A stretch of 52,991 nucleotides of DNA, filler included, from Bilabrum cf. latius (GCA_965178125.1; 2 parts of 2 records of this genome joined end to end with filler, not necessarily neighbours in it), one strand, 5' to 3'; positions 26,469 to 52,991 are shown, counted from the whole stretch's first letter. A program made the numbers and translations. Notes: generated by a model not told the origin, from the sequence alone.

Positions 26469-26568
26469 NNNNNNNNNNNNNNNNNNNNNNNNNNNNNNNN
26501 NNNNNNNNNNNNTTAATTAATTAANNNNNNNNNNNNNNNNNNNNNNNNNNNNNNNNNNNNNNNNNNNN
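26469..26568. other. Artificial contig-joining spacer
   Basis: Exactly 44 N + TTAATTAATTAA (stop codons in all six frames) + 44 N = 100 nt. Confidence 0.97.
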
Positions 26569-32044: not shown

Positions 32045-32370
32045 AAGTGGTTGATGGATACGGGGCGTGGCTGGGATCCTGTTGGAGCCGATAACGTTGC
32101 TCATCTTCCGGGTGCCGTCGGGGAAGCTGAAGAGCAGCTGAAGTTTTGGACCGCAAACGGCGTGACGAATGCCACCAGGATGCGCTTCTTACCGTTGCTC
32201 CCTTGGGTGGGACCGTCCGCCCATTGATCATGGAGGATTCACCCGATGTGTTGTCCATTGGGAGGCGTTGCATGGATATGGGGTATTCCCTGTATTGGCA
32301 TGAGCCGTACTTCGTGCTCCCCGACGGTTCGCGTGTAACGTTTGAAGTCGAAGGGTACATCCCTTTCATG
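32045..32370 (+). CDS. pol: Retropepsin-type aspartic protease (one frameshift)
   Basis: KWLMDTG with DTG at 32057-32065, flap motif FWTANG, then in the next frame PLIMEDSPDVLSIGRRCMDMGY. Confidence 0.8.
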
Positions 32371-32688
32371 CGGTCCACCGCGGTGCCGGTGCGATGCGAT
32401 GACGATTACGGCGAGCCTTGCTTGGCGGTCCGGAGTGGGGGTTATGCCTCCATACCGGCCCTTCCGGCGGGCGACGGAGCATCCGAGGGCGATTCGCTCC
32501 CTCCCGTGGCTCCTCTTGAGGTTGGTCCAGGAGATGAGGGTGACGTTCACGGAGAAGGTGAAGGAGTTCAGATGGATGAGGTGATCGACGAGGGTGCCCC
32601 AGATGGTGGAGAGGTTGACTGGATCGGGCCCGAGGCCGATGGTCGACGGGACCTGTATAGTGTCTATGGGAGGGCCAACACGGTTGAG

Positions 32689-33560
32689 CACATGCTGTTC
32701 CATTTCCCGAAGAGCCCGTATTGCCGGATCTGTCAGGAGGCGGCTTATGCAGCGGAAGCCGAATCGTCGGCGGAAGGACTTGCCTGACCAGTACAAGGTG
32801 TTCGGTGACATGATCACCATGGATCACATCGACGCCAACGATCTGCGCAAGAACGGATTGCACGGCGAGAAGGACATGCTTATTGTGTTCGACCTGGCGA
32901 CGGCATGGATTGCAGCCTATCCTGTCATGAACAAGACCGCTGGGTGTGTTGTGTCGTCCTTGATCAACTTCCTTGGGCAAGAGAAGGCCAAGGCGTTCTA
33001 CTCCGATAAGGCCCCCGAGTTGCTGGCGGGCGTCGAGCAGTTGCCTGGTCCTCCCGTTGTTCACCGCACAAGTATACCTGGAATTCCCCAGACAAACGGG
33101 ATTGCGGAGAGTCGAGTGAAGTCCGTGATCCGGGGGGTGAGGACCAACCTGTTGCAGGCTGGGTTGCCCCATGTCTGGTGGCCGCACGCTGCACGGTGTT
33201 ATGCCGTTCACAGCAACGTTGCGGGACTCCAGGAGAACACCCCTATGCAAGCGCGGCACAAGGAGGCATTTAAGGGAGAAGTGATCCCTTCGGTGCCTTG
33301 GTGTTCGCGATGCCGAGTGGGATCAACCGGAAGCGGAACTTCAAGTTCGAGGCCGCGGCCCAGCCGGCCGTGTTCTTGGGATACGTCGTTCAGGATGGCG
33401 GGAAATGGTTCGGGGAGTATGTGTGTGCGTTCGCGTCTGACTTTGTCGATGCGTCGTTCTATTCTCGGGCCCGCTGGTCAGAGTGCCGGGTTCCCGTTCA
33501 TACTGGTCGAGAATTGCGCTTCAACTCGGCAGTGCCCGTTCAGTTCCCTTGTCGGGCTGC
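32689..33560 (+). CDS. pol: Integrase: HHCC zinc motif, DDE core, copia-type C-terminal domain
   Basis: HMLFHFPKSPYCRIC at 32689-32733; MDHID (D at 32822); FYSDKAPEL (D at 33005); PQTNGIAES (E at 33107); then KFEAAAQPAVFLGY. Confidence 0.92.
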
Positions 33561-34429
33561 CTACGAAAGGGACAACGAGACGGTGCTTGGGGTGAAGAAG
33601 TGCCTGCAGCGCGAACGTGACGCGGATGAAGGATGCGATGACGTTGGCGACCCCGATGGCTTGGGTGTCGATGGCGAGCCGGTCCCGGAACGGGAGCCAC
33701 TCCTTCGTGATGATGAGCGCCCTCCTTTCGAGGAGGATGTCGCCGACCGCGTTTGGGGAGGCCTCTCATGCGGATGAGCCGGAGGTTGTCGAGCCCTACC
33801 CGACGGAGGTGCACAAGGAGCTGCAGGAGTTGAAAGACGAGGTCGATCGTTTGGAGCACATGCTCGTGCAAATTCCTTCTGGGAGAAGGGTTCAGGGCAG
33901 AGATGTGGACCAATTTGGAAAGGTGATCATGAAGACTACCCGTCGCCTTACATCGAATCCGACGATTGGATGAGGATGAACGAGTCCACCAAGAGGTCGC
34001 TTATCGACCAGCACCAGCAGGACCTCGACATGCTGATGGGTAAGAAGGAGAGGTTGGCCATGTTGACTCACACGATTGCTGAGTACGAGCGACGGCACAC
34101 CTCCCCCGAGTTGTGTGGTGACAGGGTTACCGCAGGCTTCTCGGGTACGGGGGGTGCATCGTCCTCTTCGAGTTCTTCTGCTGTGCCTCTCTGCAGCGTG
34201 TGTGCGAGGTGCGGGTGTCAGACACCCGCGGCCTCCGGCGTGGTCGAGAGTCGCTCGGGGGGCGGATGTGAGACGTCCGCAGTCCCCGGGGGGCCCGACG
34301 TGTCCTCGGAGGACATCGCCATGCCGGTGGTTATTCCTGAGTCCATTCCCCATCGTGAGAGGAATCCCATGGTCGTTACTTCGTACTACGCCTGTACTGC
34401 TCGTGATGTGAACCACAAAGAGCGGGCAT

Positions 34430-35790
34430 GGAACGTCGAGGCGCAGAAAGCCTCAAGAAGGAGTGGGGTCGCCTTCGATCATGTGGAAATGGCGAAGGGT
34501 GTTGGGACGAGACCCGTCTCGAGAGTTCGATGATGTTCAGGCGGAGTATCGCGGGAAGAAGGTCACCGCTCATTTTGGCCGTGTCTTTGACATATGCGTC
34601 GAGAAGAACTTTCACCTGGAGAAATTGCCCAATGGAGACCTCCCTCCCGGGCGGAAATACAAGGGTCGAGCCGTCTACCAAGGAAACAACGTGAAGGATC
34701 AGGAGGGCAACTGGGCCATCTTTCAGGAGCTGGCCTCATGTCCCTCTACGATGGAGGCGTCCAAGATCGTTGACTTCTATTCCTTGTTGGAAGGTCATGT
34801 GGGCGAGCAGGCCGATGCCGACATGGCCTATACTCAGGCTCGTTTCATTGGACCTCCGACGTGGGTCGAGGTGCTTCGCGAGCAGTGGCCCGACGCGTGG
34901 GATGGTGTTGGGCGCCATCAGCCCCGCTTTCGGCGGCCGGTTTGTCGGCTTCTTCGGGCGTTGTACGGGCATCCCGATTCGGGGGGGCTTGTGGGAGAGA
35001 CATTGCGATTCTCATCTGAGGTCGATCGGGTTTCGTGAGATCGACCCGTGGCGCAGCGTCTACTTCCATGACAAATTACAGGTGCTCCTCGTTGTCTATG
35101 TCGACGACTTTAAGATGGCAGGGAAGAAATCTGCTCTCGACAAGTGCTGGGGTGAGATTAGACGGGAGTTGCGCATGGAGGATCCAGAGCCCTTCGGTCT
35201 CTTCTTGGGTTGTGCCCATGAGGTCGGGGAGGTGAAGTTGGATTCGTCCTTGCCCCCGGTGCGCACGATGACGTACAATGTCGAGGCTTACCTCCGCAAG
35301 AGCATTGACAAGTACTTGGCGGTCCTCCCTCCAGGATCCTCATTGAAGAAGGCTGCCACTCCGTTCCTGACAGTCGCGGACCCCTTTGATGTGGCGCGCC
35401 CTTCGGGCGTCGGTCACGACCCTCGGATGTGTCCGTGGTGTCGTGGTGTCTTCGACTCGTCGGAGTTTTTGCCTCCCTCGGGGAAAGTCAAGGGTAGTGG
35501 GTGTAAGACACCCGCGAAGAAATCGGGTGACGGGTGTGGGACGCCCGTGACGCTTGAGAAGCCCGCTCCCCGGGGGGTCTTGGCTGAAAAGGCAGCCAGC
35601 GTGCTGATGCAGATTCTGTACGCGGCGCGTTACGCCCGTTTCGATCTGCTCTGCGCAGTGTCCAAGTTGGCTCAGCGGATAGCCACTTGGGACGAAGATT
35701 GCGATCGCCAGATCTACCGCCTCATGTGTTACATACACTCGACGTTGAGTTGGCGGCAGGTCGGGTACGTTGGCGATCCCCTCGGGGTGG
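34430..35790 (+). CDS. pol: Copia-type reverse transcriptase (frameshifted)
   Basis: KYKGRAVYQGNNVKD, QADADMAYTQA, LLRALYGHPDSGGLW, LLVVYVDDF (YVDD at 35097-35108), FLGC and LMQILYAARYARFDL. Confidence 0.95.
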
Positions 35791-35794
35791 TCGC

Positions 35795-36270
35795 GTTCGA
35801 GCTTTATGCCGACGCTGACTTCGCCGGGGAATGGTTCTAAGAAGTCTACTGCGGGGCTCCACGTGTCCATAGCGGGACCACGCACGTTTATTATCCGGTC
35901 AACGGTCAGAGCAAAAGGCAGGAGTGCGTGAGTCATTCAACTCCGGAAGCGGAGATGGTGGCAGCTGACCTCGCAATTCGTAAAGGAGGGCCTGTCCTGC
36001 TTGGACTTGTGGGATGTCCTGTGTCCAGGTCACAATCCACTCATCTTCTGGGAAGATAACGAAGCATGATTCGTGTCTGTCGATCTGGTCGCAATCCAAC
36101 GATGAAGACTCTCAACCGCACGCATGCGGTGTCTATTGCGGCTATGAAGGAGGTGTTCGACAGGGAGGATATCGAGTTGCGGTACGTGCCTTCAGCACGT
36201 CAGGCCGCCGATATCCACACGAAAGCCTTTGACAATGGCGATAAATGGAAGGATGTATGTGTCTTGATTG
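35795..36270 (+). CDS. pol: Copia-type RNase H (frameshifted)
   Basis: YADADFAG, KSTAG, SKRQECVSHSTPEAE, WEDNEA and QAADIHTKAF. Confidence 0.93.
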
Positions 36271-36569
36271 GGATCTACGATATGCAAACGTTCGACGTTC
36301 AGGAAACCATCACATTTTGGGCCACTCCGCCTCCGTCCAAGGCGACGTTGGCTCAAGAGAATGAAGTTGCGGCTCCTGCAGGCTGTGGGCGTGAGTCGCC
36401 CGCGCCGTGGGTGCCGTCGCCCGGGGGCGTTGGGAGTGGGCGTTGGACGCCCGCGGTCCCTCCGCTCCTCCCCGTTCGCGGCGCGACTGTGTCCTCGTCC
36501 CATCCGGTACCCGGACGGGGGGGTTCTCCCACCCCTCGCGGGGGTTCTCCTGTCCGGGGGGGTTCCGTA

Positions 36570-36605
<36 letters not shown>
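36570..36605 (+). repeat. 36-nt poly-G run within four GGGGGTTC units at the RNase H / DNMT frame junction
   Basis: Read directly from the sequence. The RNase H frame enters the run and the DNMT frame is open from the run onward (+1 offset). Confidence 0.9.
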
Positions 36606-36607
<2 letters not shown>

Positions 36608-36675
36608 CCGCGCGCTTTCAATCTTTCGGTCCGACTGCTGACGTGCCGCCGAGGCCAGAATCCACCGCTCGGCGG

Positions 36676-37395
36676 GTCATTATAGAGGTGTGCTGCAGTC
36701 CGACCTCGTCGATCGGCCGTTTCGCTCCTCAGGGATGCCATGTGGAGCGCATCACGGCGGCCGACGACTTTGCGTCGCGGGAAGGTAGGAACAAGGTATC
36801 GCGTGCGCTCAAAAGATATCGTGATGTACCCGTCTTGGTGTGGGTCTCTTTTCCGTGTACCGGTGGTTCGATGTGGCAGTCGCACAACTGGTGTACGGGT
36901 GATGAGTCCACGCGGAAGTTGATTTCCCAGCATTGGAAGTTGTTCCGTCGCTTGTGGAAGTCGTTCGTCGAGACGATCTTTCCGTCCGTTGCGGCCGGTG
37001 AAGTCGAGCTTGCTTGGGAGTGGCCACTCTCGTGTGTATATTGGGGTTGGTCACGTCATGGGTCGTGTTACGACGGTTCGAAGCAGGTCCCGGTCAAAGA
37101 AGTGTTGTCGCAGTTACGATTGACGTCATTGGTTGTTCATGGGTGCGAAGTTGGGTTGGTGGCCCAGTCGGGTCGACGTTCCGGGGGATCTGTTCGTAAG
37201 TTATGGAGAATTGATGTCTCGTGCCCGGACTTGCTGGGGACGCTAGGTAAGATGATAGTTCCCGGAGCATCTGACCACTTGGTTTGCGTGCACGGTGTTT
37301 CGCATGGTCACGTCAAGTGTGAAGGGTCAGTGACTAGGTCAACGGAAATGTACCCGAGCGTTTGGCGGGGGCTATTCATCGTGGGTGGGAGCGCA
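36676..37395 (+). CDS. Cytosine-5 DNA methyltransferase-like domain C-terminal to RNase H
   Basis: Motifs in C5-MTase order: I-like VIIEVCCSPTSSIG; IV VWVSFPCTGGS (PC at 36853-36858); VI-like AWEWP; VIII-like HGCEVG..RKLWRI; X-like TEMYPSV/LAGAI. Confidence 0.7.
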
Positions 37396-37976
37396 TATCG
37401 AGGAGGACGGACAGGAAGAGGGGGAAGATCACGCATGGGGCGAGTCAGCGCGCGTGTGTCGCGCGTCAGGTCTGTCCCGACCCGCAGCCGCCAGGCCCGG
37501 GCCCTTCGCCCCCCCCCCCCCCTGTCGGCCCCCAGCGCGTGTCGTCGTGGGCCTTGTTCCTCGACGGCAGCTTTTCGACTCTCTCTTTCCTCGGTCGCGC
37601 GCTCCGGCGCGTGGCCGCGCCGTTTGGCGTTTCTTGGCCGCCTTTCTGCGGTCCTTCTTCTTCGCGTCTCCCCGACGCATCAGGCCTTTCGGCCTCTAGG
37701 GGGCGGTTGAAGACCAGTGGGAGTTGGACTCCCGTAAGGTCGGATACCCCTCCTCTCTTCCCTCAGCTATCCGGGGAGCCGAAGACTCGTGGGTGTTGGA
37801 CACCCGCAGGGTCGGAGGCCGCCTTGACACGCTTCCTCTTCGCGGGAGGTCGAGCGCCTTGCGATCGGGTCGTATCCCCGTCCCGCTCGGCATTCCCTCT
37901 TGCGCGGGTTGGCTTGGTTGAAGGGGCGTCGCTTGGTGGGCGTTGGACGCCCGCAGAGCCGGTCCCTCCTTCAACC

Positions 37977-40900
37977 ATGCAGTATGCGGCGGAGCCCCTG
38001 CCGGAGCCGCCGCCTCCCGGCGCGCCGCTTTTCCCTGACGCCGAGCCCACTGATGTGCCACCAGTGATCCCCGACGAATGGCGCATTTTCGGCGGGTGGG
38101 AAGTGCCGGCGCCTTCGCTGCCATGCGCGTGGTTGGACCCGAGCAACTTCAGCATTCCGGTGTACCTTCCCAAGCACCCGGAGAAGTGGTTGGTCGACAA
38201 CTACTTTCAGATGCGGTGGCAGAACGCGTTGCAATTCTGCGCGCAGCAGAACGACCCGTTGAAGGACATCCGCTTCCCTTTGGGAAACGCCACGTTCTCG
38301 GGTCTGCGCAGTTGGTTCAAGAAGTTCGCGGCCCAGTTCGAGCCGAGGAATCAGGATGAGGCAACGCGTATATATCCGCCCGATATCCATCTCAAGTTTT
38401 CGTTGATGAGGGAGTAAATGAAGTCGCCGCACGATATGTTCTGGCTTATGTTGGCAACGTATACGAAACGGCACAGGGAGAACAACCATAACCCTCCACC
38501 GCTTGTTGGGATGTTGAATCGGCGCGGACAGACGCCGTCGATGCCGGTCATGACGGAGGCAGAACTCTCGGGGGATGTCATCTTGTACGCCCTGAGAGGA
38601 CCGTACGGGGAGTTTCAGTCCCGTCCAAGGCCTGCCGAATTAATCACGACGCCATCGGCATCGGACTTCAGGCGCAATGACTCGTTGTTGTGCGTGCACT
38701 CGAATGTTGCGGACGATGGCATCATGATCCAGTTCCAGTCTGCGACGGCGTTGGACGCCGCCACACAGGCTGGAGCCAGGAAGAACATCATCTTCGACGC
38801 CCGTCCGGTTGGCTTCGCCATTGCGTGGCAGGCAGCCCCTCCGCCCAACCAGGACTGTCTCGTCCATTGGCGGGTCATCGGTTTGGTCGCCGGTGGCCAG
38901 GCTGATCGATATGGTGTCGAAGAAGGATGGGAGATCAAGGCCATCATGGTGCAGGAGCTTTACGGGATGAACCACGTGGCGACGCTCACGGCGTTTCAGG
39001 CCGCCGTGAGGGCGTTGCCCGAGCGGCTTCCCACGCCGCCTCCCACGCCGGCCACGGCCGCCATCACGGATGCGCCGGCGGCGGATGTTACGATGGAGCC
39101 GGCCGAGCCTTTTGCGGAGCCTCCGACGGATGGCGGAAGTGGGACTTCCGCGCGTCCGGAAGAGCAGCATGGGCAACAGGAGGCGGGCGCCGCGGGTTCG
39201 CAAGACCCTCTGCCGGAGCGCGGGAGTCGGACTCCCGCACCTCCGGCCGATGGGGTACGCACCGCGGAGCCGTATGACCCTTGGGCGGAAGAACAAGAGG
39301 AGCCGCAACCGACGTCGAGTGCCGCGAGCTCAAAGGCCCATCCGCCGGAGCGTGGAAGTAGGACTTCCGCCCCTCCGGTTAGTGGGACCCGCACATCGGA
39401 GCCATACGACCCTTGGACTATGGAGGTGGACGATGAGGGTCCGCCAGGGGCGCAGTCGCAGAGCAGCGGGAGTCGGACTCCCGCACGCTCTGCGGCCACG
39501 CCCGGGCCATATGTTCCTCCAGGACCGAAAGCCCCTCCAGCGCCTCTTCGACGAGACGCCGTTCCACATCCTCCTCGAGGAGCAGAGCCAAACGTACCAG
39601 ATCTTCCTCCTAGTCGTAAGGCACCTCCACCGGGTTTTGGGGGCACGCCGCCGGGGCCGCCGCCCCAGCGGCAAGTCCCGGGGGCACCCCCGGGGCCGCC
39701 GCCCCGGAGGGCGCCTCCCCCCATGCCCACTGTTGCCGAGGAGGGTACCCCACACCCTGGGGCGAGCGGAAGTCGGACTTCCGCGACGCCTTCGGGGCAT
39801 GGGATGCCTTCCCAGGCAGCGTCCAGCTCAGCCGCCCCGGGCGCAGCGTCCAGTGGCAGCGGAAGTTACGCTTCCGCAGCCGCCGGCGTGTTCACGGGGT
39901 GGTTTCGCAGAGCCGCATCAGCTTTGAGAGGATCGGCATCTTCTTCGACGACGGGCCAGGCCGCGGCCGACGCGTCTGCCGCCCCCTCGGATCGCGGAAG
40001 TTACGCTTCCGCACGTCCGGTGGAGGCGCGTTCGCCACGGACGCCGTACCACGCGGTGATTCCGTGGGCGCAGATCCGCGGTGGCAAACGCCCCGTCGAT
40101 TTCAGTCGGATTTACCCCGCCGGGCCGACAGGACAAGGGCTTGAAGTTGCTGGCGCGAATGGCCTGGGGCCCCCGCCATACAAGCCGACGACGCTTTGGG
40201 AGCTCATGTATCGGCAGGGCTACAATCGGGAGTCGACCGGAGGTGAGTTGAAGGTGAACGTTCCCTTGCAGGTGGCTTTGTGGAAGACGGGAGGACGTGA
40301 GGCGTTCCACTACAGTGCGGAGATGTCGGGTACCCCCATCCCGGGCCAGAGGCGCTGTGAGGCGTGGACGGATTACGTCCGCGAGCTCCTCATTGCCGCT
40401 CTGCGCCTCGGCGATAACGCGGTACGGGACGCGTATGTGCGTCAGCCGTTGACGAACGTCTTGTCCGACATCAGGGCATTGTACAACGCGCTAGGACGGG
40501 AGGGGATGTTGAACGTCCCCCGGATCAAACCGTCGCAGTTGAAGGCATTGTGTACAGACCCGTCGCAGGATGGGCTGCCAATGCCCCCTAGCACATGGGA
40601 TTCTCTGGAGGAGATCCATTTGTTTGGGGACTCGACCACGATCCTCACGACGAACAAGAGAGGGCAGCAGAAGCTTGGCACGTTCTTCACGTCGTGGATT
40701 GAGCATTTTCGGGCCGATGTGAGGGCTGGTATAGTCGATCACACCGTTGGCGGTTCGGATATTGTGGGTGTCCGAAAGACCGTCACGGCCCAGCTAGAGC
40801 GCATGAGGACAATGGCGCAAGGATCGGACGAAGAGATGCGTCGGCGAGGCTTGGGCGCCCGTGTCGGCCCCCGCGTTGGATGTATTGTCATCTATAACGG

Positions 40901-43900
40901 GAACGCCGTAAAGGCGGAGCATCATAAGGAGAAGCACAAGGATTACGACGAGATGATGCTCTTGGCCCGGGAACTCGCGGCATTTGACCGGCATCTGTTG
41001 GTGATAAGCCATCACCATGATTTGTTCACTTTGGACGAGTCGTGGGCGTACCAGATGTCCGGAATGCATGTCATCGCAGATGCCGCGGGTTGCGCCACGA
41101 CAAGTGGATGGCCGATGATCTCGGGGATGTTCCCGTTCCGAAAGGGGTACTTGCATTCCAACGGGACGTTGCCGTCGCAGCATGTGACGCTCAACGAGTT
41201 CGCGGTCCTCTGCAAGATCCTCCAATTGAGCATTCCGGTCTCGATGGCGGTGGATCTGCTCCGGGTGAAGGGAGTGTCAATTCGTGACGACCCGGAGTAG
41301 AGTACGCCTTTGATGAACGGTACTCGGTGCCCGTGTCCCTGACGCATAGTGCGGTCGTCGGAGCGGGAAAAAGGACGACCGATTTCATGCCGAACGTCCC
41401 TTCGGTGGTAGGCTACAAGGCGGACGCGTACATGGCGGTCGACCCCCGGACAGGCAGGCCAGGGATGAGTAGGCGGGAATACCTGGACGCGATCAAGGTC
41501 CAAGCCTTGACCCACTACTATGAGTTGATGGTCACACGCCTGCGCGACGACGACCCGGCGATGCTCCATTTGCATCAGCACCGGAAGGACTCAGTGAGGG
41601 CGGACGTGCGGCGCCGTTTCGCTGAGCAGCGGACGTGGGTCGTCCGTGAGTTCATCGAAATGGCCCGCAGGTTCCGCGAAACGCAGAAGGAGGAGGAGCA
41701 CACGATCAAGTACAAGCGCCGTTTGTTGAGGCGGGCGGCGAAGTATTTCCTCCTGACCGGCGAGGACGGGTTCTTCACCTTCCTCGACCCGGGCATGGCG
41801 AACTTTATGGATGTGGAAGAGTCCGCCGGTCCCCCCGAGTTGGATGACGATGAATCGTTCGACGAAGACGACATTCATGCAACCATCGATGCATGGACAA
41901 CTGGGGGGCAATGGGACATTACCGTGGCACCCGTCGACAAGATCAGGGAAGTGGTCGGCGAAATGGCGAAGGAGGAGATCCAGAGGCGAGTGGCTGCGGG
42001 GTTGATGGACGCGAGGGCTCAGGACCAGCCGGGTGATGGGAGTAGGACTCCCGTGTTGCCGGTTGATCCCGAGACCTCGGCCGCCTCCCCCGCGGCGCCC
42101 AAGGATGAGCCGATGGAGGAGACGCGTGGAGGTGAGACCTCCGCCGCGCCGTCCTCCGTCGGTCCGCCCACGTCTGAGGAGGTGCCGCGTGGGAGTCAGA
42201 CTCCCACCGCGGTTCTCCCCGATGGCTCTGGTGCCTCCGCGACGGCTCCGCGCGGGAGTGAGACTCCCGCTCCGGTTGCTGGTGCGGAGGCGCCTGGCGC
42301 GCCTGGGCCCTCAGGGCCCGGGCCGACCCCCACATCAGGTCCTGAGCCGAGCGAGATGCCCGAGGCCGGCGCTCTGGGTGAGGAGGAAGCGGCGCGCGGG
42401 AGCGGGACTCTCGCTGCGTCTGCGGAGTCCAAACCCATGGATGTCGACGAGGAGGCGCCAAGTGGTGAGAACCTGCTCTCGAACTTCATGCCGGCGCCTC
42501 CGATGTGCGCGCCGCCGACGTGCATCGTTTCCAAGGACGTCGTGGACGTTGGGACGTTCGTGTGTGCGCCCTTGGGACCGTTCGGTGCTATTGACTACCA
42601 CGGTCACCCGATCCGGCCCGACGGGGCCACAGGGTCCGGGGCCAGCGTGTTGCTCATCTCCCTTGACATGAAGCACTTCGTGTTCGGCTACACGAGGAAG
42701 TCCAGGAGCACGCAAGGTCAGTATTGGACGACTTTTGGTGGCAACCGGGACAGACAGGATGACGGGCCCGTGGCTGTGGCTATGCGGGAATTCTCGGAAG
42801 AACATGGGAAAGAGTTTCCCTTGTGGGCCCATCCATGCGTTGGATACGTTTGGTCGAGGCACCATGTCACATTCGTAGTCATGTGTGATCCAGATTACGC
42901 TTGTTGGACATTCCATAGGAACAGTGAAGTGACAGAGGTCGTGCGCGTTTGCATCTTGGAAAATGTGCAATGGTCGAAATTGGTGCGTAGGGCATGCCAG
43001 AGTGCCGTGATTGCCGTGGCCTCGTTCCTCAGCGGCTCCGACCCCAAGCACAGGGAGAAGGTGCAGAAGGCGTTGGAGTTGGACCCGTGCAGCGGGATCA
43101 GTGAGTGCAGGCGCAAGTACACCAAATTCACCATGCCCTTGATCTGGATGCCGAGAGAGGCGTTGTACGGTGCTGAGCCGAAAGGGATTGGTAGTCGGCC
43201 GCTTGGGCGAGGGAGTAAGACTCCCCCAGTACCCATCGCCGGCACCGCCCTGGTGCTCATGCACGGACAGAGGGCGAGGGTGGAGGTGTGGGACGAGCCG
43301 GTGCCCAAGTTGCACGGCAGCAAGAACAGCGAGTCGCTCTTCAAGAGTATGGAGCTCGGGTTGCAGATCGCGTTGCGTCAGCCTTGGCACCCGGTGAACT
43401 CGGTGTTCGGCCCGCTCATGTCCTCGAAGGCGGCATACCCCGACGTCGTGGAGCACCGTCCATGGGTACTCATGGATACAGTGTCAGAGTATCACGCACC
43501 ATCACGCGTCGATGGCCCATTTCGACATGTACGGCCATTATAGGGAGCATGCAATGGGGTGGTCTACTGAGGTTGACGATCGCACGCGCGTGCACCCGGA
43601 CTATATCCGTGACCGGAAGAAGGGTATCATTGGCCCGAACGTCATCGACCCCACGCGCGATGAGGACGTCGACCGCATCAAGGGCCTCCCTGGAGCGTTG
43701 GGCATTGAGCGAGACGTCGAGCTCGAGGGGCGCGGGAGTCGGACTCCCGCTGCCTCTTCGGGGCCCGGTGCTGCCGCGAGTGGAAGTCAGTCGTCCACGG
43801 ACGCGCCGCGGCCTCCGACTCTCACTCAGTCCACGATTCCCCCCGTCGCTGAGGAGGTCCCTGCCGGGAGCGGGAGTCAGACTCCCGCAGGCCCGGTGGA

Positions 43901-46900
43901 GGCCTCCAGTGAGGGTGACGTTGTGGAGCCGGAAGAGGAGGCGGACTATGGTGACGCATCCTCGGTCGACCCCATGACGGCTGCCCTTAAGGTCTCATTC
44001 AGGGGTACGTCGCACTTGGCCGAGAAGCAGGACCTCCTATCGTTTCCCTACGCCACCGAGGTGGAGTACATATATGGTGGTTGTAGGACGGGTGCGGAGA
44101 TGGCGGCGATCACCATGGCGGCGTATCTGAACCTCAATCGTGGGGGTTACGCCCCTGCTTGGGGGGACGACGCGTTCCGAATTGGTGGTTACATGCCGGG
44201 CACGCACGGGCTTTCGACGGTGCATCCGTCGGTCCCGGACGCCGAGAAGGAGGTGGCCGCGTGGCGGAAGACGCTCGAGAAGTGCGACGGCGTGCTGATT
44301 TTCTGCTGGGCTACCATGAGTGACGAATTGCTTGAGTTGTGGTACATGGCCCAACATGATTATAAGCGGCATACTAAGGTGATAGATGTGTCGGCAGGTC
44401 GAAAGCACATGGTCGGTACCATCTGCGAGTGGTGTAATGAGTACCATGTCAAACGTTTGTGGATTACCGGCGAAACAGAGGACGAACTTGCCCATCCGAT
44501 GTGGCGGCCGCTGGCATATTATCTCATCGACGAGTTCAAGCCCACTGCGGAGAACTACACGATTGAGCCGGACCGAGATTACGACCAGGACCGGACAACC
44601 TTGCCGAAGGAGCTCAACGATGTGATCCACAGGGGCGATGTCTTCTACTCCCTCGACAGGGACGAGGAGGCTCCGACGACCACGATGGGTGACGGCGGAG
44701 GTCAGACCTCCGCAGACCCCATCGAGGTCGATGAGGCGATGCCGGACGCGGAGGGCGAGGCTGGCGAGAGTGGGACTCTCGCGAAGGCCACGTTCCTGCG
44801 TCCGGACACCGCCAAGCGCGCCGGACTAGAGCTTGAAGAGGATCGAGGCGACGATTTCACCCAAGTGATCGATTCACTCCCACCAGAGCATCGCGAGCGC
44901 ATTCATCGCCTTCTTCAAGTCGAGGCCGCGTTGGGCGCCGACGTCATCGTCAGTCTTCATCGGGCCGATAGCCTTTCGGCTGCGGACGTGGCTTATGCCA
45001 GCTGGACGTCCGTGATCGCCCTGATGGAGAAGGAAGACGTGGAAGCTGCCGGGGAGTCGAAGATCTACTTGGAGAACTTGAGGAGAAAGGTTGATTCGAT
45101 CATGGAGGCTCGGTCTGAGCCCAAGGCAGCGTCATCTCACGGAGCGAGGGCCGCGATGGAGCAGCAGGACGATGAGGAAGAAGATCCGTCGCTCAAGGTG
45201 CCCGCGCCCGAGGAGTTGGCAGATGCCCAGTTCGCCACGGCCGGGCTCTCGTCATTGGCGGCGCAGGCCCGTATCATTGAGGCGGGCAAGGAGGCAGCTT
45301 CGTCGGACGTTGCGCAGATTGACAAGCCGTCCGACAAGACCACGGTCACGATCGAAGATCTGTCGGGCTGCGTTCTCCCCGGGAATCAGGCGAGATTGGA
45401 CCAGTACTTGCAGCAGAATCCCGAGGGGATGCCGCAACTGGAGCATGAGCCGCTCGACAAGAAGGCTGAGGAGCACGTGATCGGGGACGAAGACGAAGCT
45501 CCCGGACCGCCGGGGCCACCCACGGGCACCTTTGCCTCGGAGGTTCCGACCTACGCGGCGGGTGGCGTTGGGCCGGCGGTGTCGACCATGGGTTCGGAAG
45601 ACCCGACTTTCCCGGGAGGTATGGTGGGGCCTTCCCTCTCCACTGTGGGATCGGAGGTACTCCTTCTCCCGGGGCAGTTGGTCGGGAGTCGCTCCGGCCC
45701 TTATGTGCCGGAGTCGTCCGGCACTGAGGAGCCCGGGGCCCAGGCGGAGGCCGTCGTCGGCGGGCCCGGGCCTTCCAGCGGAAGTTTGACTTCCGCAGGA
45801 TTGCTTGGGACCCGATATAGCGACTCGGTTCCGCCTGGCGCGACGGAGATGCTCGGAGAGGAGCGTGGTGGAGGTAGGACCTCCGCAGCGCACCTCGAAG
45901 AGGTCGCCGGTGAGTTGGAGCAGCAGGATGTCGCGATGGACGTGGATGAAGACCTCTCCCCGAAGGATGCGACGTCCAAGTCAATGGCTAAGGCTCTGAA
46001 CAAAATCGGCCCGCGTTTCAAGGGCACCGCCGAGGGTGCGGCTCGCCGTACGTTGTCGATGACTGACAGGTCTACGCGCGTCGATCCGGTATCAGCCTGG
46101 CACAAACTCACCTCTCAGCATGATCAGTCAGGAGAGGCTTTGCCCATCTTTCCGCCGGACGTCATAGCCAGGATTCTGCGCCAACCCCCCGCTGCGGGCG
46201 CGGCGTCTTCCTACTCCCAGGCGGTCCGCGGAGGTCAGACCTCCGCAGTGGCTGCCGCGGCCGTCCCCGTTGGTGGGAGTCGGACTCCCGCAGACGTGGA
46301 AGTCAAGGAGGAGGAGGATGACGAGCCTACGATTGATCAGCAGGAGTTTGCGCGGCGTATCGCTGTTGGGGCTGCCGCGCATCCGCAGATCGACTTGTCG
46401 AAGGAGATGTCCAGGAAGGAGAAGAGACAGGTGGCAAGGGCGAACGTTCTGGCGTTGAGGGCAAGAAGAGATGAAGAGATTGCAGTAGCCGCCCAGATCC
46501 TGCAAGAACAGCAGTCCCAGGCGTCGATCCAAGGGGATGCGAGGGTTGTCGTGTCGGGCGTTGGACGCCCGAGTGACGAGCAATACCTCCATATCCCGGA
46601 GATCAGCGCTCAGGGCAGCTGGGCGCAGAGCGTCGATGAGCTCAAGGAGTTGTTGGCGGACTGGTGCGGCGACGACGTGGGCGCGAGGGATCCGGCCTGC
46701 AAGGTCATTACTCCAGAGATGAGGAAGCTCCGAAACGGACAGCGCATTGTTCCGGATACCCTCAAGCTGAAGCCCCTCACGAGCCTGATGGTTGTGACGG
46801 GCAACCGTGGTGGCTCGTTCGTGACCGAGTATTTTGCCAACTATCGGCAAGAGGAGAGTGATCTGCGTAAGCACATCAACCAGGCGAGGCATCACGCGAG

Positions 46901-49900
46901 GAACCCGAACACGAGGTTCTCGAATGCTTACAACGACATCTCCAGGACGCTCGGGGCGTGGTTGCGCCACACAGGCCTCAACCATGTCAGTGGCCCTATC
47001 ACCCGCGATCAGCCCGGTTTGTCAATGGACACCGGGGGATGGGCGCCGTGGGGCACAGTGGTCAGGCGGCTGCACCAGCTGCTGGCGGATGGCTACAACA
47101 CAGCAGGATGCAAGAGAATGACCACGTCGGCCGTCCGTTTCGTGATCACGGAGAACGTCGTCTTGGCGACCATCCTCGCGTTGGATGTGAAGGGTCGGTT
47201 CCAATTGGCCTTCTGCAAGGATCCGCACAACGAAATCGAGATCCGGGGAGTCAGAGCGGTCCAGGGGCACAGTTTGATGTTCATCGATGAGGCGCGTTTG
47301 GCCTATTGCCCCGCTGGTGCCGCGGCGTTGAAGCAGACGATCAAGGAGCTCTGGCATGGCACCAAGCAGGACAGCCTGATGGGCATTTTGGCCAACGGAT
47401 TGATCCCCGGAGGAAGCGATGGTCGTATCAGAAGGAATTGCGTCCACATCTCACCGGTTCATCCCTGGATGGAAGGAGCTGAGCACACCAACCGCTCCAA
47501 CTCCGACTGCTTTGTTCGCATTGACGTGGACAAGTTGTACCAGCGCGTCCCAGTGCAGCACATCTTTCAGTCGGCGAATGGGACGGTGTTGGTTCGGGAC
47601 GCGGTTCCGGTGTCATGCTTCAAGGAGATCGTTTACCAGAACGGCCCCGGGGATTACCAGGTTGTGTGGAGCGCCTCCCGTGTCGGACAGGCGCCAAGTG
47701 TGGTCGTCCCGTCCGCCGGGGGCATGCGCGATCACTCCGGTGGTGCGGTTCAAGCCGCCCGTCGGTGGGCCAGCGGGAGTCGGACTCCCGCAGGGTCTGC
47801 TGCGGGCGGCGGTGGGAGTCAGACACCCATGCAGGAACCGCCTACCGTGGGGATCTCGCTCGACGTGGACTTGGACATTGCAGGTCGCGTTACCTTTCAT
47901 TGCCCTGTGTGTGAGAGTGTTTGCTTCGCAGGGGCGTGTTTTTGTTTCTCGTGTCGATCCAGGTTCTACTATGAGGACGAGGCCCACAAGCTCCGGCCGA
48001 TGGCGGCAGGCGTCGCGGTGCCGAGGGCCAGCCCGGAGACGCTGGCGCTGCTCAAGGAGGCCCGAGGAGAGCTAGGTCTTGGTCGAGGACGATCCGCGGG
48101 AAGCAACATGTGGCGTGACATCAAGCGTGGTAAAAGGTTAGGAGAGGAATGGCGTGGCCCAGGTTGGCAGAACCCGGAAGCGATAGAACGCATTCAAAAT
48201 GCAGCAAAGAAGGGCGGTGTGCCATTTACGTGGTCTGCGGGACGTTGCGACCCTTGGACTCCGACGAGTGAGCATTCGCGGCCGGACTCGCAGATCACCC
48301 TCACGCCTCGTGACTTCGTGTACGCGGTGTTGAGTATGATGGGCGGCCCATACACAGACGACCCGGATTCGCTGACCGGTGACGCCGCGGTGAAGCGCAC
48401 GAATGCCGTCACGTTCATCAACATCGTGAGTGTGTTGGGCACCGATGTGCTTTGGGAGATCATGCGCGACGAGACGATCTCGGCCGACGCAGTGTTTTTG
48501 GGTATTTACAATACCATTAGAGATATTCCCCAGATTGAGGAGAGTGTCATTCAAGTATTGGGGAATACCGTCGACCGCGAGGACTTTGCGTTTGCGCTGA
48601 ACTTCACACGCCGCGAGGTCGCCTAGTGGGGCGCCATTGTTGACCCTCAGAAGGGTCATCTTGCCCGCGACGCGCCGGTTGGGACCAGCGAGAGCAAGGC
48701 AGCGGCTCTGGCCAAGGGCCATGCCATCACCACTGCCGTTGGGAAGGCGAGACGGGCGACGCCGCCTCCCAAGCCGGCGGGCCCGACGACGGCCAAGGCC
48801 GCGAAGAGGAGTGGGAGTAGGACTTCCATGACGCCTCCCGCGCCGAAGGCCCGTCCGTCCGGCTCGCCGGGTCCAGGCGCTGGCCCAAAGGGGCAAGGCA
48901 AAGGTGGCGGGGGTAAGGCTCCCACCGCGCGCGACGCAACCTGAGAAGGGGCCGGGACGCGGAAGTCAGACTTCCGCAGCGCCCGCTAAGCCCATCTCTC
49001 AGCCCGCGCACAAGGGTAAGAGTACCGGTCGCGGAGGTAAGGCCTCCGTCGAGCCGGACCCTATCCCGCCATGGAGAGCCCAAAGCGGCAAGTCGATCGG
49101 TCGCGGGAGTCAGGCTCCCGTGAGGCCGGAAGCGTCCTTCACTTTGGCGAAAGGGGGCGGAAAGGCCTCGGAGCGTGGAGGTAGGACCTCCACACCTCCG
49201 ACGGCTCAGCCGCTCCCCCACTGCCAGCAAGTCTGGTGGAACGGGTAGCGGGAGCGGCACCCCTCCACCACCGCCCTGGGCCTCGAGCCGGGGCGGACCA
49301 CCGCAACGCGTGTGGGTCCCAAAGGGGTCCGCAGCGGCACCGGCCTCTGGCACGATGCCGCCTCCTCCGCCCACGACAACGATACCGTTTTCGAGTCCTC
49401 CGGCTGGCCAGACAGCATCTACGGGAACGCCCGCAAAGTCTAAGGCTTCAACACCTCCGCCGTTGAGAGGTTCGGTTGCTCGCGACCCGTTGATCACTCA
49501 GGACCCTCCGTCGCAATCGCACTTACCTGAGACCCGTGGAAGTCAGACTTCCACAAGGCCCAGGCAAGACGAGGAGACGGGTAGAGCTAGGGAGTCTAGG
49601 GCGCAGGAGCGCAGGTCTTCGCCGAGATCGCGATCGGGAACTGGAGCTACACGAAGCGAGGCGAGACCACCTTCGGCACCGACTGCGAGTTCACGGGGTG
49701 AAGAGCGGCGCCATGAGTCTTCAGGGCAATCTAGGCCCAGTGAGCATCGACCACGTTCACAACATGGTGAATCGTCGACGAGTCGCCAGCCTCGCCGTAC
49801 CCTCGCGACTCGGGCGATCGTCGTTCTTCCCGAGACGACGAACCCCGTCGAGGGCGACGCCGATCTCCTACTCCAAGGGAATCGGAGCGTCGCCGCCGCC

Positions 49901-50460
49901 GATCTCCCTCTCCACGGGAATCTGGCGGCACGCGCCGGCGCCGTGACGAGGACCCTCGGGAGCGTGGAAGTCGGACTTCCGCTGCTCCGCAGGGTGATCG
50001 TCCGGCGCCGAGCGCGGCGTCTTGGCTGGATCGAGGTCGCGACTCTCCCATGCGCGGTCCAGGCCGGGGTGCCAGCGCCCCTTCCGTGGCAAAGGCGCCA
50101 CCGCCGCCTCCGCCTCCAGAGCGAGCGGCATCCGCCTCTTCGCGTCACTCTCACGATTCGCCCTATCCAAGGGAACCTCGTCCGCGTCGAGACGCCGATT
50201 CTCCGGCCGACGACCGGACCCGATCTCGGAGGGCGTCGGGGGCAACGCAGGGCGGTGGGCGTCAGACGCACGCAGCTCCGCGGGACCCGCCTACGGCCTC
50301 AGAGCGACCCGAGGATCGCGGGAGTAGGACTTCCGCACGTCCTCAGGGGAGTTCGACTGTTGCCGGGGACCAGGGCCCTTCCCGCGCGCGCGATAGCACA
50401 CGCCATGGCGATCCTTCGTCGACGTCGCGTCGCTGGGGCGCTGAACGCCGCGGCGGCTGA
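37977..50460 (+). CDS. Giant cargo coding region (~4,100 codons) broken by two in-frame stops (38415, 48624) and several frameshifts
   Basis: Consecutive ORFs 37977-38417, 38418-41300, 41327-43543 and 43512-48626, then 48627-50460 in pieces. Protein-like sequence continues across every junction, and the G-S-x-T-P hairpin peptide stays in phase. The final TGA is at 50458-50460. Confidence 0.75.
38781..39025 (+). CDS. PDZ-like domain
   Basis: IIFDARPVGFAI (GLGF-loop equivalent) ... WRVIGLVAGGQADRYGVEEGWEIKAI, matching V..V..G..A...G...GD.I..I. Confidence 0.65.
40610..41230 (+). CDS. SGNH/GDSL hydrolase-like domain
   Basis: Block I IHLFGDS (GDS at 40626-40634), block II HTVGGSDI, block III IVIYNGNA, block V KGYLH (H at 41154). 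The usual Asp of DxxH is not evident. Confidence 0.5.
42635..43030 (+). CDS. Nudix hydrolase domain
   Basis: ASVLLIS..FVFG..WTTFGGNRDRQDDGPVAVAMREFSEEHG = G-x6-D-x7-RE-x2-EE-x-G at 42740-42808, against the canonical GX5EX7REUXEEXGU. NSEVTEV follows downstream. Confidence 0.85.
44058..44535 (+). CDS. SLOG-superfamily domain (putative MoCo-carrier / circularly permuted YpsA type)
   Basis: IYGGCRTGAEMAA..GGYAP..RKTLEKCDGVLIF..KVIDV..ICEW...VKRLWITGETE parallels the family pattern ISGGQTGADRAA..GGW.P..RT..NV.DSDGTLI..KP.L.ID..I..W...LNVAGPRES, recalled from memory. Confidence 0.72.
46935..47635 (+). CDS. kptA: Tpt1/KptA NAD+-dependent RNA 2'-phosphotransferase domain
   Basis: ISRTLGAWLRH, GLSMDTGGW, DVKGRFQL, VRAVQGHS, LWHGT..ILANGL.PG, RNCVHIS, VRID and QSANGTVLVRDAVPVSCF. 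The catalytic Arg-His-Arg-Arg tetrad is present. Confidence 0.93.
47901..47954 (+). CDS. Zinc ribbon after Tpt1
   Basis: CPVC-x10-CFSC. Confidence 0.65.
49560..50460 (+). CDS. Arg/Ser-rich disordered C-terminal tail of the cargo protein
   Basis: ERRSSPRSRS, RRGRRRSPTPRESERRRRRSPSPRES ... RRWGAERRGG-stop. Confidence 0.55.
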
Positions 50461-51003
50461 CGGCGATGTCATTATTCCGCTGTTGGCCGCCCAGGTGCAG
50501 CCGTTCGCCGTCGTCGGCGGGCACACCTTTTGCGTAGCGAGGAGGACTACCCAGACACGGAGTTTTACATCGATTGGTGATCGGTGGGATGGGGGGCTCT
50601 GCCTGGTGTCGTTGAGCCCAGGCATCCCCGTGCATTGTATAGGCTGAGCCGTATGCTCAGCGTTCTCCCGTGCTTGCGGTGTGCGTGTCCCCTCTTGTCT
50701 TGTGGTGCGCGGCGCAGTCGATCAGGTCTTTTTAGAGGCGAGGGCTTGCCGGCTTGGCGCTCGTCATGGCCGCCCGGGCAGATCGGTGGAAGCAGTCTTT
50801 CCCGCCGACTGTCCGGGCAGGCCGCCTCCCGAAGTGCCCTCGTCTCTCCCCGGGACACTACCCGGACCGGCATTAGTTCTGGCCGCCCGGCTAGCCATGT
50901 GGAGCCTTGATGCCCACCTCTGGCCCGGGCGTGCCGCCGTCTGGAGTAGCTGTTCCCGGGGGCTGCCCGAGACCCCGCAGCGGACTTGCTCGGGGCGGGC
51001 AGC

Positions 51004-51013
51004 GGGGAGGGGA
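51004..51013 (+). promoter_or_regulatory. Polypurine tract (plus-strand primer)
   Basis: GGGGAGGGGA immediately followed by TG, ~550 nt after the last stop codon. Confidence 0.6.
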
Positions 51014-51564
51014 TGACTCCATTCCCCCTCCCCGGGTCGGTCGCGCTCGCGCGTGTGTGGTGTATAGCGCTCGTCTTCGTCGCCTTCTATTTTGATGGAG
51101 GTCGGTAGTCGGGGCACCCTCGTCTTTTTGGCATGCTCTGTGCCTTGCCGTGAGAGTTGGACTCCCACCGCGGGCCAGACGTGCCAACGGGGGGTGTTTC
51201 TCGTTTGCCCCGATAACCGGACAGTATTCCTCCAAGTAGGTTGCACCTAGGACAGTAGCATGCATGCGCATAGCGGATCCGTAGTCCTTTTGGTCTTTTC
51301 GGAAAACAGTGTTCCGCGCATCGCACACTCGCTCGCGCTCGTCGCGTCGTGGGCCCTGTTCCCTGGCCCTTTGCCCGGCTACGGCCGGGCCAGTCCCGGG
51401 GCCCAGGGCACCACGTGCCCCAGGGCTGTGAGACTATCCAAGGGTGGTCCTGGAGGTTTGGGTCCAGGATCCCCTGCCCCGGACCAGAGTGGTCCGGGCT
51501 ACAGTGAGCCCCGGCCCCAGGGTGGCCGGGCACCTACCCATTCGCAGGGGTCTTCCCATTCGCA
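51014..51564 (+). mobile_element. Candidate LTR (551 bp, TG...CA) shared between the two tandem elements
   Basis: Begins TG directly after the PPT and ends CA directly before the PBS. No second LTR copy is in the window to confirm the boundaries. Confidence 0.6.
51278..51293 (+). promoter_or_regulatory. Dinoflagellate spliced-leader-like motif inside the LTR
   Basis: TCCGTAGTCCTTTTGG matches DinoSL DCCGTAGCCATTTTGG(CTCAAG) at 14 of 16 positions, ungapped. Confidence 0.45.
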
Positions 51565-51578
51565 GGTTATCAGCCGTA
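51565..51578 (+). promoter_or_regulatory. Primer-binding site complementary to the anticodon arm of tRNA-Ile (half-tRNA priming)
   Basis: GGTTATCAGCCGTA; its reverse complement UACGG-CU-GAU-AA-CC has anticodon stem-loop architecture. The geometry matches the copia half-tRNAiMet PBS GGTTATGGGCCCAG. It abuts CA and lies 18 nt before the gag ATG. Confidence 0.7.
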
Positions 51579-51596
51579 TAGCCTGTTCCCAGGGCG

Positions 51597-52991
51597 ATGG
51601 AGCCCCGTGGCTCCACTCCGCCCATTCGAGACGGTGAAGAGGCGTCCCTTGACGACCTCACGCTGTCATCCCTCACGCCCCCATCTCCGTTACCGCTCCG
51701 CGAGGGAGCGGAACCCCAGGGCGGTGGGGGCCAAGCCTCTGCAGTCCTTGGGCCCATGGACGGTGTCGTCGTCCCTAGCTGTGGGGGCCAAGCCCCCGCC
51801 GAGCTAGGGCAGGGACGACAGGCCGAGCGCCGCGGGGCGCAGCACTTCCTCATCCATTCGGAGGGTGAGGAAGTCTCCGCAGGAGCCGAGCCGGACCAGG
51901 AGCGGCCCCCTTCCTTGGGTCGTTCCCGATCTCCGTCCGCGATGCCTACGGCGTCCGACCGTTCGTCGCCTGTCAGTCGTCGTTCTCGCGCTGTCGGTCG
52001 TTCATCTCGTTGCAGGTTTCCGGCGGAAAGTAGGGACGCGCGCTCGGGCGGTAGCCGTCCCGACCCCCCCCCCCCCCTCCCCCCCGCCGCCGCCATGGGC
52101 GGCCGTCGTTGCCGTCGACTCCGCGTTCAACGAGACCAAGTGCTACTCGCTCGCCGAGTCAGGCTCCCTTGGATGTTTCTGTGCCGGAACAGCCGCTGAG
52201 CGGATGGGGTTGTGGGAGCCAAGCTTCCGCTTGCCCCCCCGCTCGGTCATCTGCTCTGGACGGAGGCATCCACACAGGTGATGGCGATGGCCAAGTGGTG
52301 ATAGCGACTGATAGTCATGCCCAAAACTTCCTCGAAAAATCCGATGATGATGTAGCGACGGGGTGCGACCTCGAGACGCAGCTCGAGGACATCATGCGGG
52401 AGACGTTCGACGCCGCGAGCGCCGAGCTCGCCGCTCACGGCCCGACTCCGCGTGCGCACAGTGCATCGCGACGCACCTCCCCGAAGGGCATGCCGGTCCG
52501 TGGGTGCCAAGCATCCGCTAGACTGGCTGCCCCGAGGGGAGATGGGCCGCCCGCGCGCAACGTTGCCGAATCGTCGTCGTCATCATTACCGCCGGGCGCA
52601 TTCCCTCATCGGTTATCTCGTCCGGAGAGTTGCGCGGATCCGGCGACTCCGCCGGCCGCGCCGCCGCCGGCGCATGGGCATCTCGAGTACGACGGTAACG
52701 ACAAATCGGTATTTTCCGGAGTAATGAATGTGGATTTCCCGTTCCAGGCTGGCTCAAACCCCGGTGTTGGCCCTGGTGGGGGTCATACCCCCGCAGATGG
52801 TGCCGATACCGGGGGTCACATGGGCCTGCCCCATGGTCCTTTTGACAGTGTGGCTGAGGCGAGCGGGCGCCAAGTGCCCGCATCGCCAAATGGGCACGAC
52901 TCAGCTTCTGATTCTACCATGGGGAACGGGAAAGACTCCGAAGGCAGGAAGCGCGTGAAGATCCATGGGGAGGGGCTGGGGGAGCCGATGC
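51597..52991 (+). mobile_element. gag: 5' gag region of a second, diverged copy of the element (runs off the window)
   Basis: ATG at 51597. 51630-52991 is collinear with 26575-27970, sharing SLDDLTLSSLTPP, RGAQHFLIHSEGEEVSAG.EPDQERPP, CCATGGGGAACGGGA and GGAAGCGCGTGAAGAT. Confidence 0.9.

Follow-up and report, generated by a model that had tools for sequence, protein, structure and literature searches.

In a 52,991-nucleotide stretch of DNA from Bilabrum cf. latius (GCA_965178125.1), hereafter the window, we identified a candidate accessory polyprotein that combines a Tpt1/KptA RNA 2'-phosphotransferase domain with putative Nudix and SLOG domains. The reading we favour, at a probability of roughly 55%, is that it belongs to a very high-copy, copia-like retroelement family of about 25 kb, in which Nudix, SLOG and Tpt1 would form a unit acting on NAD+ (nicotinamide adenine dinucleotide) and ADP-ribose. 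KptA, Nudix, SLOG and Macro are NAD+/ADP-ribose-processing domains, which are known to serve viruses both as weapons and as repair tools. An initial annotation of this DNA had proposed a Nudix box, a SLOG-type domain and a Tpt1 domain with its full R-H-R-R tetrad, in series within one retroelement protein. All three were located on the + strand where it had put them, and in that order. The features on which the argument turns, including the open reading frames (ORFs) P0001 and P0002, are these:

41288..43543, + strand: frame-2 open frame with the Nudix-like domain; its ORF, 41327-43543, is P0002 (738 residues)
42662..42898, + strand: Nudix-like domain (PF00293, NudB, Atlas neighbours)
42734-42811, + strand: Nudix box, with REFSEEHG at 42785-42808
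43398..48626, + strand: frame-0 open frame of 1742 codons from stop to stop; its ORF, 43512-48626, is P0001 (1704 residues)
43462..43463, + strand: frameshift separating the Nudix frame from the SLOG and Tpt1 frame (contigs, P0005/P0007)
44070..44480, + strand: cpYpsA-type SLOG domain (PF12694, PDB 3imk)
44076-44099, + strand: glycine-rich loop of the SLOG domain, GGCRTGAE
46935..47597, + strand: Tpt1/KptA RNA 2'-phosphotransferase domain (PF01885, PDB, NCBIfam, PHROGs, KptA alignment)
46965-46970, 47196-47198 and 47433-47435, + strand: Tpt1 tetrad codons, for R1152-H1153, R1229 and R1308
48624..48626, + strand: TAG stop private to the window copy (contigs, relatives)

The relatives available for comparison were a set of proteins, P0003-P0015, and a single DNA locus of 1673 nucleotides from a metagenome scan, L001. 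The Tpt1 call is firm. Pfam PF01885 matches residues 1142-1362 of P0001 with an E-value of 1.5e-12 and 48.3 bits (cut-off 26), and the match covers profile positions 5-176 of 177, taking in both lobes. The domain was also matched by the NCBIfam RNA 2'-phosphotransferase family (E 9.6e-8) and by phrog_5470 (E 5.9e-6) of PHROGs, which gave no match outside Tpt1 among the pieces scanned. Its best PDB match is a tRNA 2'-phosphotransferase, 7yw4 (E 4.6e-6, 28.9 bits). The essential tetrad consists of R23/H24/R71/R138 in the yeast enzyme and R21/H22/R69/R125 in KptA (PMC6097658). In a MAFFT alignment with E. coli KptA (NC_000913.3) these last four residues pair with R1152/H1153/R1229/R1308, bearing out the tetrad that had been proposed, and a residue count in the phmmer alignment places R138 of 7yw4 at R1308. 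The QGHS and HGT motifs are present; compared with E. coli KptA, the N-terminal lobe is interrupted by several insertions. We predict the domain to be catalytically complete. Pfam also recognised Tpt1 in the relatives P0003 (44.6 bits, E 2.1e-11) and P0013 (E 1.6e-4).

The SLOG call is of moderate strength. Scanned in isolation, the domain matches PF12694 with 28.2 bits and an E-value of 1.8e-6 over profile positions 1-127 of 145. It passes the cut-off of 26.2 bits only in this isolated form, and the SLOG-type domain of the initial annotation is supported to that extent. The sole PDB match is the cpYpsA-type protein 3imk (E 0.021), in which GGQTGAD lies opposite the GGCRTGAE loop and the GG-aromatic-x-P motif is also aligned. 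A cpYpsA match was found again in the relative P0005, at 22.9 bits (E 7.9e-5).

The Nudix call is borderline by profile and is backed by its motif and by its neighbours in the ESM Atlas. The box, GGNRDRQDDGPVAVAMREFSEEHGK, keeps the REUxEExG element intact as REFSEEHG, and the preceding strand and GG are present; relative to what we take to be the consensus, GX5EX7REUXEEXGU, it has one extra upstream residue, a D in place of an E and a K at the last position. Among the 30 nearest Atlas clusters of the Nudix piece 28 are NUDIX, with scores of 0.95-0.96, a level that shuffled proteins reach about 1 time in 100. The only NCBIfam match of the piece is the Nudix enzyme NudB (E 0.093). Pfam NUDIX matched the relative P0006 at 19.5 bits (E 0.001), and REFSEEHG is retained in the more distant P0009. 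P0012 was rejected as a relative of the Nudix region, the phmmer match being a spurious one to ankyrin repeats.

The module lies within a repeat unit for which self-blastn of the window gave the boundaries:

26581..51634, + strand: repeat unit of 25,054 nucleotides (self-blastn of the window; repeat family D17)

Positions 51635-52594 align to 26581-27527 with 68.7% identity over 972 nucleotides, and this match defines the length of the unit. The 25-kb unit belongs to a very high-copy family. In Logan contigs of four public runs, representing three coded organisms and three studies, 24,198, 12,394, 1,606 and 2,236 contig pieces aligned to 41288-50700, with cover in 30 of 30 bins, and eight runs, which come from four studies and represent four coded organisms, contain part of the stretch.

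Whether the three domains belong to one protein was assessed from these contigs and from the protein relatives. In the window copy the Nudix-like domain is in frame 2 and SLOG and Tpt1 are in frame 0; the two frames overlap, and the single protein of the initial annotation is here two ORFs. Other copies read across the junction. At 43462/43463 a one-letter length difference is present in contigs of all four runs, over the whole depth at 43463 in runs X1 and X2 and in part of it in X4 and X6. P0005 (768 residues) runs from the post-Nudix segment across the 43463 junction and on through SLOG in a single frame, and P0007 crosses the same junction in one frame and enters the N-terminus of P0001. 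The pre-Tpt1 segment is continuous with Tpt1 in P0014, as Tpt1 is with the C-terminal domain and tail in P0003 and P0004. Since the contigs and P0005/P0007 lack the breaks of the window copy, the family would read Nudix, SLOG and Tpt1 in one frame, and the domains are collinear, in one reading frame, in these other members. The TAG stop follows the same pattern: position 48624 has a different letter in every covering contig of the four runs (38, 27, 7 and 14 contigs), the homologous sequence of P0003, P0004 and L001 continues beyond it, and the window itself stays open in frame after the stop, from 48627 to about 48940. A further frame change in the window copy lies at 49214, where contigs of all four runs show a one-letter length difference. 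The best explanation is that the window copy is a recently broken member of the family, whose frameshifts and stop are private to it.

We infer every enzymatic step of the proposed function, and its benefit to the element. Tpt1 would act, with NAD+, on the phosphorylated ends of RNA or DNA from the element or its host; the Nudix domain would split the pyrophosphate of ADP-ribose by-products or of ADP-ribose/NAD-type caps; and SLOG would bind or cleave ADP-ribose-derived nucleotides. Together these activities may repair or mark the nucleic acid of the element and remove toxic or signalling ADP-ribose derivatives. Some Tpt1 enzymes ADP-ribosylate the 5'-phosphates of RNA or DNA (PMC6182162, PMC6573784, PMC12678800). 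In Bodo saltans virus a Nudix domain has been proposed to process the ADP-ribose (ADPr) derivative made by KptA, and in DNA viruses SLOG, Nudix, Macro and NADAR tend to co-occur, which has been read as a set of counter-measures to ADPr-derived signals or toxins (PMC9503650). The earlier interpretation of the locus, as an RNA/cDNA end-modifying or counter-defence module, keeps its three domain calls, the collinearity in relatives and a Tpt1 that is not evolving neutrally, and its retroelement setting is consistent with the data. Several results weigh against the reading we favour, and most are given below beside the alternative that each of them helps. One concerns the mechanism itself: if the Nudix domain removed ADP-ribose caps, it would work against a Tpt1 that adds them, so a single pathway need not unite the three activities.

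The module could instead serve pure counter-defence, which we consider unlikely. It would then drain or destroy immune or stress signals that the host derives from NAD+, as well as toxic ADP-ribose derivatives, with SLOG as a sensor or glycosidase, Nudix as a pyrophosphatase and Tpt1 repairing host RNAs cut by defence nucleases, and would leave the nucleic acid of the element untouched. The same proposal has been made for viral SLOG/Nudix/Macro combinations, and tRNA repair for phage KptA (PMC9503650); viral NUDIX clusters are also the closest Atlas neighbours of the Nudix piece, though this amounts to no more than a lead. Set against this, PADLOC gave no match in any of the 10 pieces scanned, and Pfam and NCBIfam scans of the unit revealed no partner of the Macro, NADAR, 2H or RNA ligase type.

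It is also conceivable, and to us rather doubtful, that only Tpt1 is real and that Nudix and SLOG owe their detection to chance similarity within a long, partly low-complexity polyprotein. With PF00293 the 180-residue Nudix piece scores 20.1 bits (E 6.7e-4), one bit under the cut-off of 21.1, and we therefore file the domain as Nudix-like and not as a proven member; for the Nudix call made at the outset, the intact REUxEExG and the Atlas neighbours speak in favour and the profile score falls short. A Pfam scan of the whole 738-residue ORF gave no Nudix match, and SLOG scanned within its whole ORF reaches 24.0 bits against 26.2. AlphaFold2 models of the Nudix piece (7-row alignment A1; mean predicted local distance difference test, pLDDT, 35.5) and of the SLOG piece (2-row alignment A2; mean pLDDT 38.5) were unusable, so neither fold is confirmed. 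Sequence searches returned no distant relatives: phmmer with the Nudix piece found no Nudix entry in the PDB up to an E-value of 10, and against 1.84 billion representatives it gave 7 hits, 6 of them copies of the element and none a distant Nudix relative. Word-indexed protein searches gave 2, 1 and 3 hits, all element copies; searches with the SLOG alignment A2 and with alignment A3 found nothing in viral contigs, and a search with the Nudix piece found nothing in genome contigs. Conservation of these two domains was judged from protein relatives only. Between P0005 and the window SLOG is 83% identical and its flanks 79-81%, so that SLOG is no better conserved than its surroundings. For Nudix, on the side of the favoured reading, the core is the better conserved part: it is identical at 125 of 138 positions (91%) in P0006 and at 44 of 47 (94%) in P0011, compared with 65 of 93 (70%) and 127 of 165 (77%), respectively, in the upstream linker. 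A chance resemblance is opposed by the agreement of four lines on Nudix (Pfam, NudB, 28 of 30 Atlas clusters, and the intact REUxEExG with its strand and GG) and by the repeated Pfam NUDIX match in P0006. For SLOG, the isolated domain passes the cut-off, its sole PDB match is a cpYpsA protein and P0005 repeats the profile match.

The domains may, at an appreciably lower probability, be passengers, a captured fragment of a host or viral gene with no role in the propagation of the repeat. All the copies recovered, whether as proteins or as a locus, are fragmentary or broken, and L001 itself carries a frameshift and a stop; in a Pfam scan of 10 relatives, domain matches were obtained in P0003, P0005, P0006 and P0013, and the other 6, fragments or frameshifted, gave none. 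Selection was estimated by the Nei-Gojobori method as omega, the ratio of nonsynonymous to synonymous divergence, between the window and L001, a single pair whose synonymous divergence (dS) is near saturation:

Tpt1, first part, 70 codons: omega 0.093, dS 1.13
Tpt1, remainder, 101 codons: omega 0.16, dS 0.88
Linker, 60 codons: omega 0.27, dS 0.85
Cys motif and C-terminal domain, 235 codons: omega 0.15, dS 1.53
Tail, 89 codons: omega 0.36, dS 0.84

In this comparison with one other copy the Tpt1 codons appear to be under strong purifying selection. Neutral evolution, which the initial annotation had named as a result that would speak against the module, does not describe Tpt1, with omega of 0.09-0.16. 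Passengers would not be expected to show such values at a dS of about 1 in Tpt1, nor the 0.15 of the C-terminal domain, in two copies. Domain order and frame are moreover kept across independent contigs, and the tetrad is intact. The frame-0 run of 1742 codons without a stop, in DNA of about 62% G+C, likewise argues against passengers and is far beyond chance, as estimated from base composition.

The retroelement setting was examined in the part of the unit upstream of the accessory frames, where two pol-like segments were recognised:

32765..33352, + strand: integrase-core-like segment, frameshifted in the window copy (PDB matches; D, D, E-type motifs by eye)
34980..35837, + strand: copia-type reverse transcriptase (RT) segment with a YVDD motif (Pfam RVT_2 and motif)

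The top two PDB matches of the first are retroviral integrase catalytic cores, 4mq3 (E 0.018) and 4pa1 (E 0.025); Pfam gave no match in this segment, and its D, D, E-type motifs were judged by eye against what we take to be the consensus. The RT segment, whose translation contains LLVVYVDDFKMAG, matches RVT_2 (PF07727) with an E-value of 0.023 and 14.7 bits, far under the cut-off of 31.6. A C-terminal RNase H-like end was read by eye in a frameshifted segment upstream of the accessory ORFs. The order of integrase (32.8-33.4 kb) and then RT (35.0-35.8 kb) fits copia. Both matches are weak, and neither the repeat listing nor self-blastn showed a direct repeat pair at the ends of the 25,054-nucleotide unit that could serve as long terminal repeats (LTRs); we therefore call the unit copia-like and not a proven member of Ty1/copia. 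The left boundary of the unit adjoins runs of N (26469-26568), which hide the true 5' end and leave the absence of LTRs unproven. A retroelement-like, 25-kb setting for the module is consistent with the weak RT and integrase matches, the motifs read by eye and the hairpins distributed over the whole unit. That the module lies outside any retroelement, as a multi-copy host gene or endogenous DNA-virus segment beside a decayed copia element, is very improbable: the RT and integrase matches and missing LTRs would allow it, as would the lack of a visible frame link between the pol-like and accessory ORFs in the window copy, with a poly-G run (36571-36614) between them, but the hairpin motif fills 26.7-50.3 kb, flanking the pol-like region on either side, and is found again in the next unit, the 25,054-nucleotide unit repeats as a whole, and strand and G-over-C skew are common to 28-50 kb.

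The hairpin motif is 15 nucleotides long, GGRRGT-NNN-ACYYCC, and was found at 31 sites where 0.08 were expected. All lie on the + strand between 26731 and 52792 (for example at 39222, 43734, 46275 and 47775), and none of the 31 is in 1-26730. The stem is often extended to GCGG...CCGC; pairing is perfect at 29 of the 31 sites and includes a G.T pair at the other 2. Four stem variants occur and imply compensatory changes; in one example a Ser-to-Gly change is paired with a synonymous change of ACT to ACC. Wherever it falls in the long ORFs, the motif keeps to a single frame and encodes G-S/G-x-T-P/S-A, mostly in inter-domain linkers, and this peptide motif is also seen in P0003-P0007 and L001. 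The pattern suggests selection on an RNA or DNA hairpin of the + strand; alternatively, what is repeated could be a site in the peptide, for instance one for cleavage. One speculation, to which we give little credence, is that the 31 in-frame hairpins are sites at which the transcript is cut and rejoined or its ends marked by phosphate chemistry of the tRNA-splicing type, so that the RNA of the element would itself be the substrate and be left with 2'-phosphates or 5'-phosphates. The element's own Tpt1 would resolve these ends or cap them with ADP-ribose, with Nudix clearing or uncapping them and SLOG handling the ADP-ribose products. If true, the life cycle of the retroelement would depend on NAD+-driven RNA end chemistry.

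The remaining features of the unit surround the module:

36571-37710, + strand: open frame (ORF listing)
37338-38417, + strand: open frame ending in TAA (ORF listing)
38418-41300, + strand: ORF of 960 residues (ORF listing)
47841..48623, + strand: Cys-rich motif (47901-47954), then a conserved C-terminal domain (identity, omega)
48627..50647, + strand: low-complexity tail of the polyprotein, rich in Arg, Ser, Pro and Gly (translation; homology to the P0003/P0004 tails)
49124-50647, + strand: open frame (ORF listing)

These belong to a chain of long open frames on the + strand from about 28 to 50 kb, a region in which that strand has consistently more G than C. The Cys-rich motif has the form CPVC...C..C, and the domain that follows, of about 200 residues, is 83% identical to P0004. 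Pfam, NCBIfam, PADLOC and PHROGs gave no match for this C-terminal domain, which belongs to no known family, and its best Atlas score, 0.77, is uninformative. The tail evolves faster, with an omega of 0.36 and 59-61% identity to P0003 and P0004. For the 960-residue ORF and the two overlapping frames upstream of it (36571-38417), the same four resources gave no match. The C-terminal half of the 960-residue ORF looks globular and contains an FGDSTT stretch, which we take to recall the first block of SGNH/GDSL hydrolases. Further upstream, a gag-like region (30539-31123, + strand) has tracts rich in Lys, Gly and Pro and a CCCH zinc-finger-like motif, for which Pfam zf-CCCH_12 gave an E-value of 0.014, under its cut-off.

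A second, diverged unit begins at 51635 (51635-52991, + strand), so that two 25-kb units follow one another in head-to-tail orientation, and no LTR can be recognised at their junction. The first aligned base of the unit is directly preceded by two runs of 44 N (26469-26512 and 26525-26568); a run of about 35 G occupies 36571-36614, where it separates the RNase H-like end from the accessory ORFs, and has a C-rich counterpart near 52.05 kb (52045-52098). These N runs, the poly-G run and its counterpart may be assembly-sensitive places. Positions 1-26400 of the window hold unrelated dispersed and tandem repeat families (D1-D14, D16 and D18-D20) without hairpin motifs; members of these families reappear near 1.3-6.3 kb and 21-26.3 kb, with a spacing that is often about 3.7 kb. 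The G+C content of the window is about 0.59-0.71 in 2-kb windows, and a search of the window for the dinoflagellate spliced-leader motif, allowing up to 3 mismatches, gave 0 matches.

The combination of domains appears to be known already from some viruses, and is met here in a retroelement-like repeat. Like the module described here, the KptA-Nudix fusion of Bodo saltans virus unites the two domains in a single polypeptide encoded by a genetic parasite of eukaryotes (PMC9503650). It is, however, a two-domain protein of a DNA virus, and the likeness is one of described architecture, whereas in our case the setting is a retroelement-like polyprotein with SLOG in between, a distance of about 4 kb separating Nudix and Tpt1, and a huge number of copies in a cellular genome. 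In a Beihai picorna-like virus and a Botrylloides leachii nidovirus KptA is likewise one module of a long replicative polyprotein; these are RNA viruses, for which the passages of the survey drawn on here report no Nudix or SLOG beside KptA (PMC9503650), and the present element is a reverse-transcribing one. Retroviruses come up in those passages for 2H domains only (PMC9503650). Among cellular enzymes, yeast Tpt1 (7yw4) and E. coli KptA share with our domain the PF01885 match, the tetrad and the aligned QGHS and HGT motifs, but cellular Tpt1/KptA proteins stand alone at about 180-230 residues, while here the domain is embedded in a frame of 1704 residues and has insertions in its N-terminal lobe. 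The cpYpsA SLOG proteins (PF12694; 3imk) resemble ours in the profile match, the glycine-rich loop and GG-aromatic-x-P; the similarity is weak (3imk, E 0.021), and here the domain is fused into the polyprotein of a eukaryotic mobile element.

Retrotransposons of Symbiodinium that bear a DNA methyltransferase (DNMT) offer a parallel of another kind, an amplifying family with an extra enzyme domain thought to be active in host conflict, although the enzyme class is different and the copia elements of Symbiodinium are said to be without DNMT (PMC5890265). The words Nudix and phosphotransferase have 0 occurrences in the available text of that article. In the literature consulted, no retroelement is described with KptA/Tpt1 or SLOG domains; the supplements of PMC9503650 may list further architectures.

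The three domains are each unbroken in the natural sequence of the window and are suited to simple enzyme assays. The thousands of pieces, together with a Tpt1 that appears to be under selection, suggest that eukaryotic reverse-transcribing elements also use NAD+-dependent nucleic-acid chemistry. Retrotransposons would thereby be added to the NAD+-ADPr conflict network, and the role of Tpt1 where yeast-type tRNA splicing does not require it may gain a new context.

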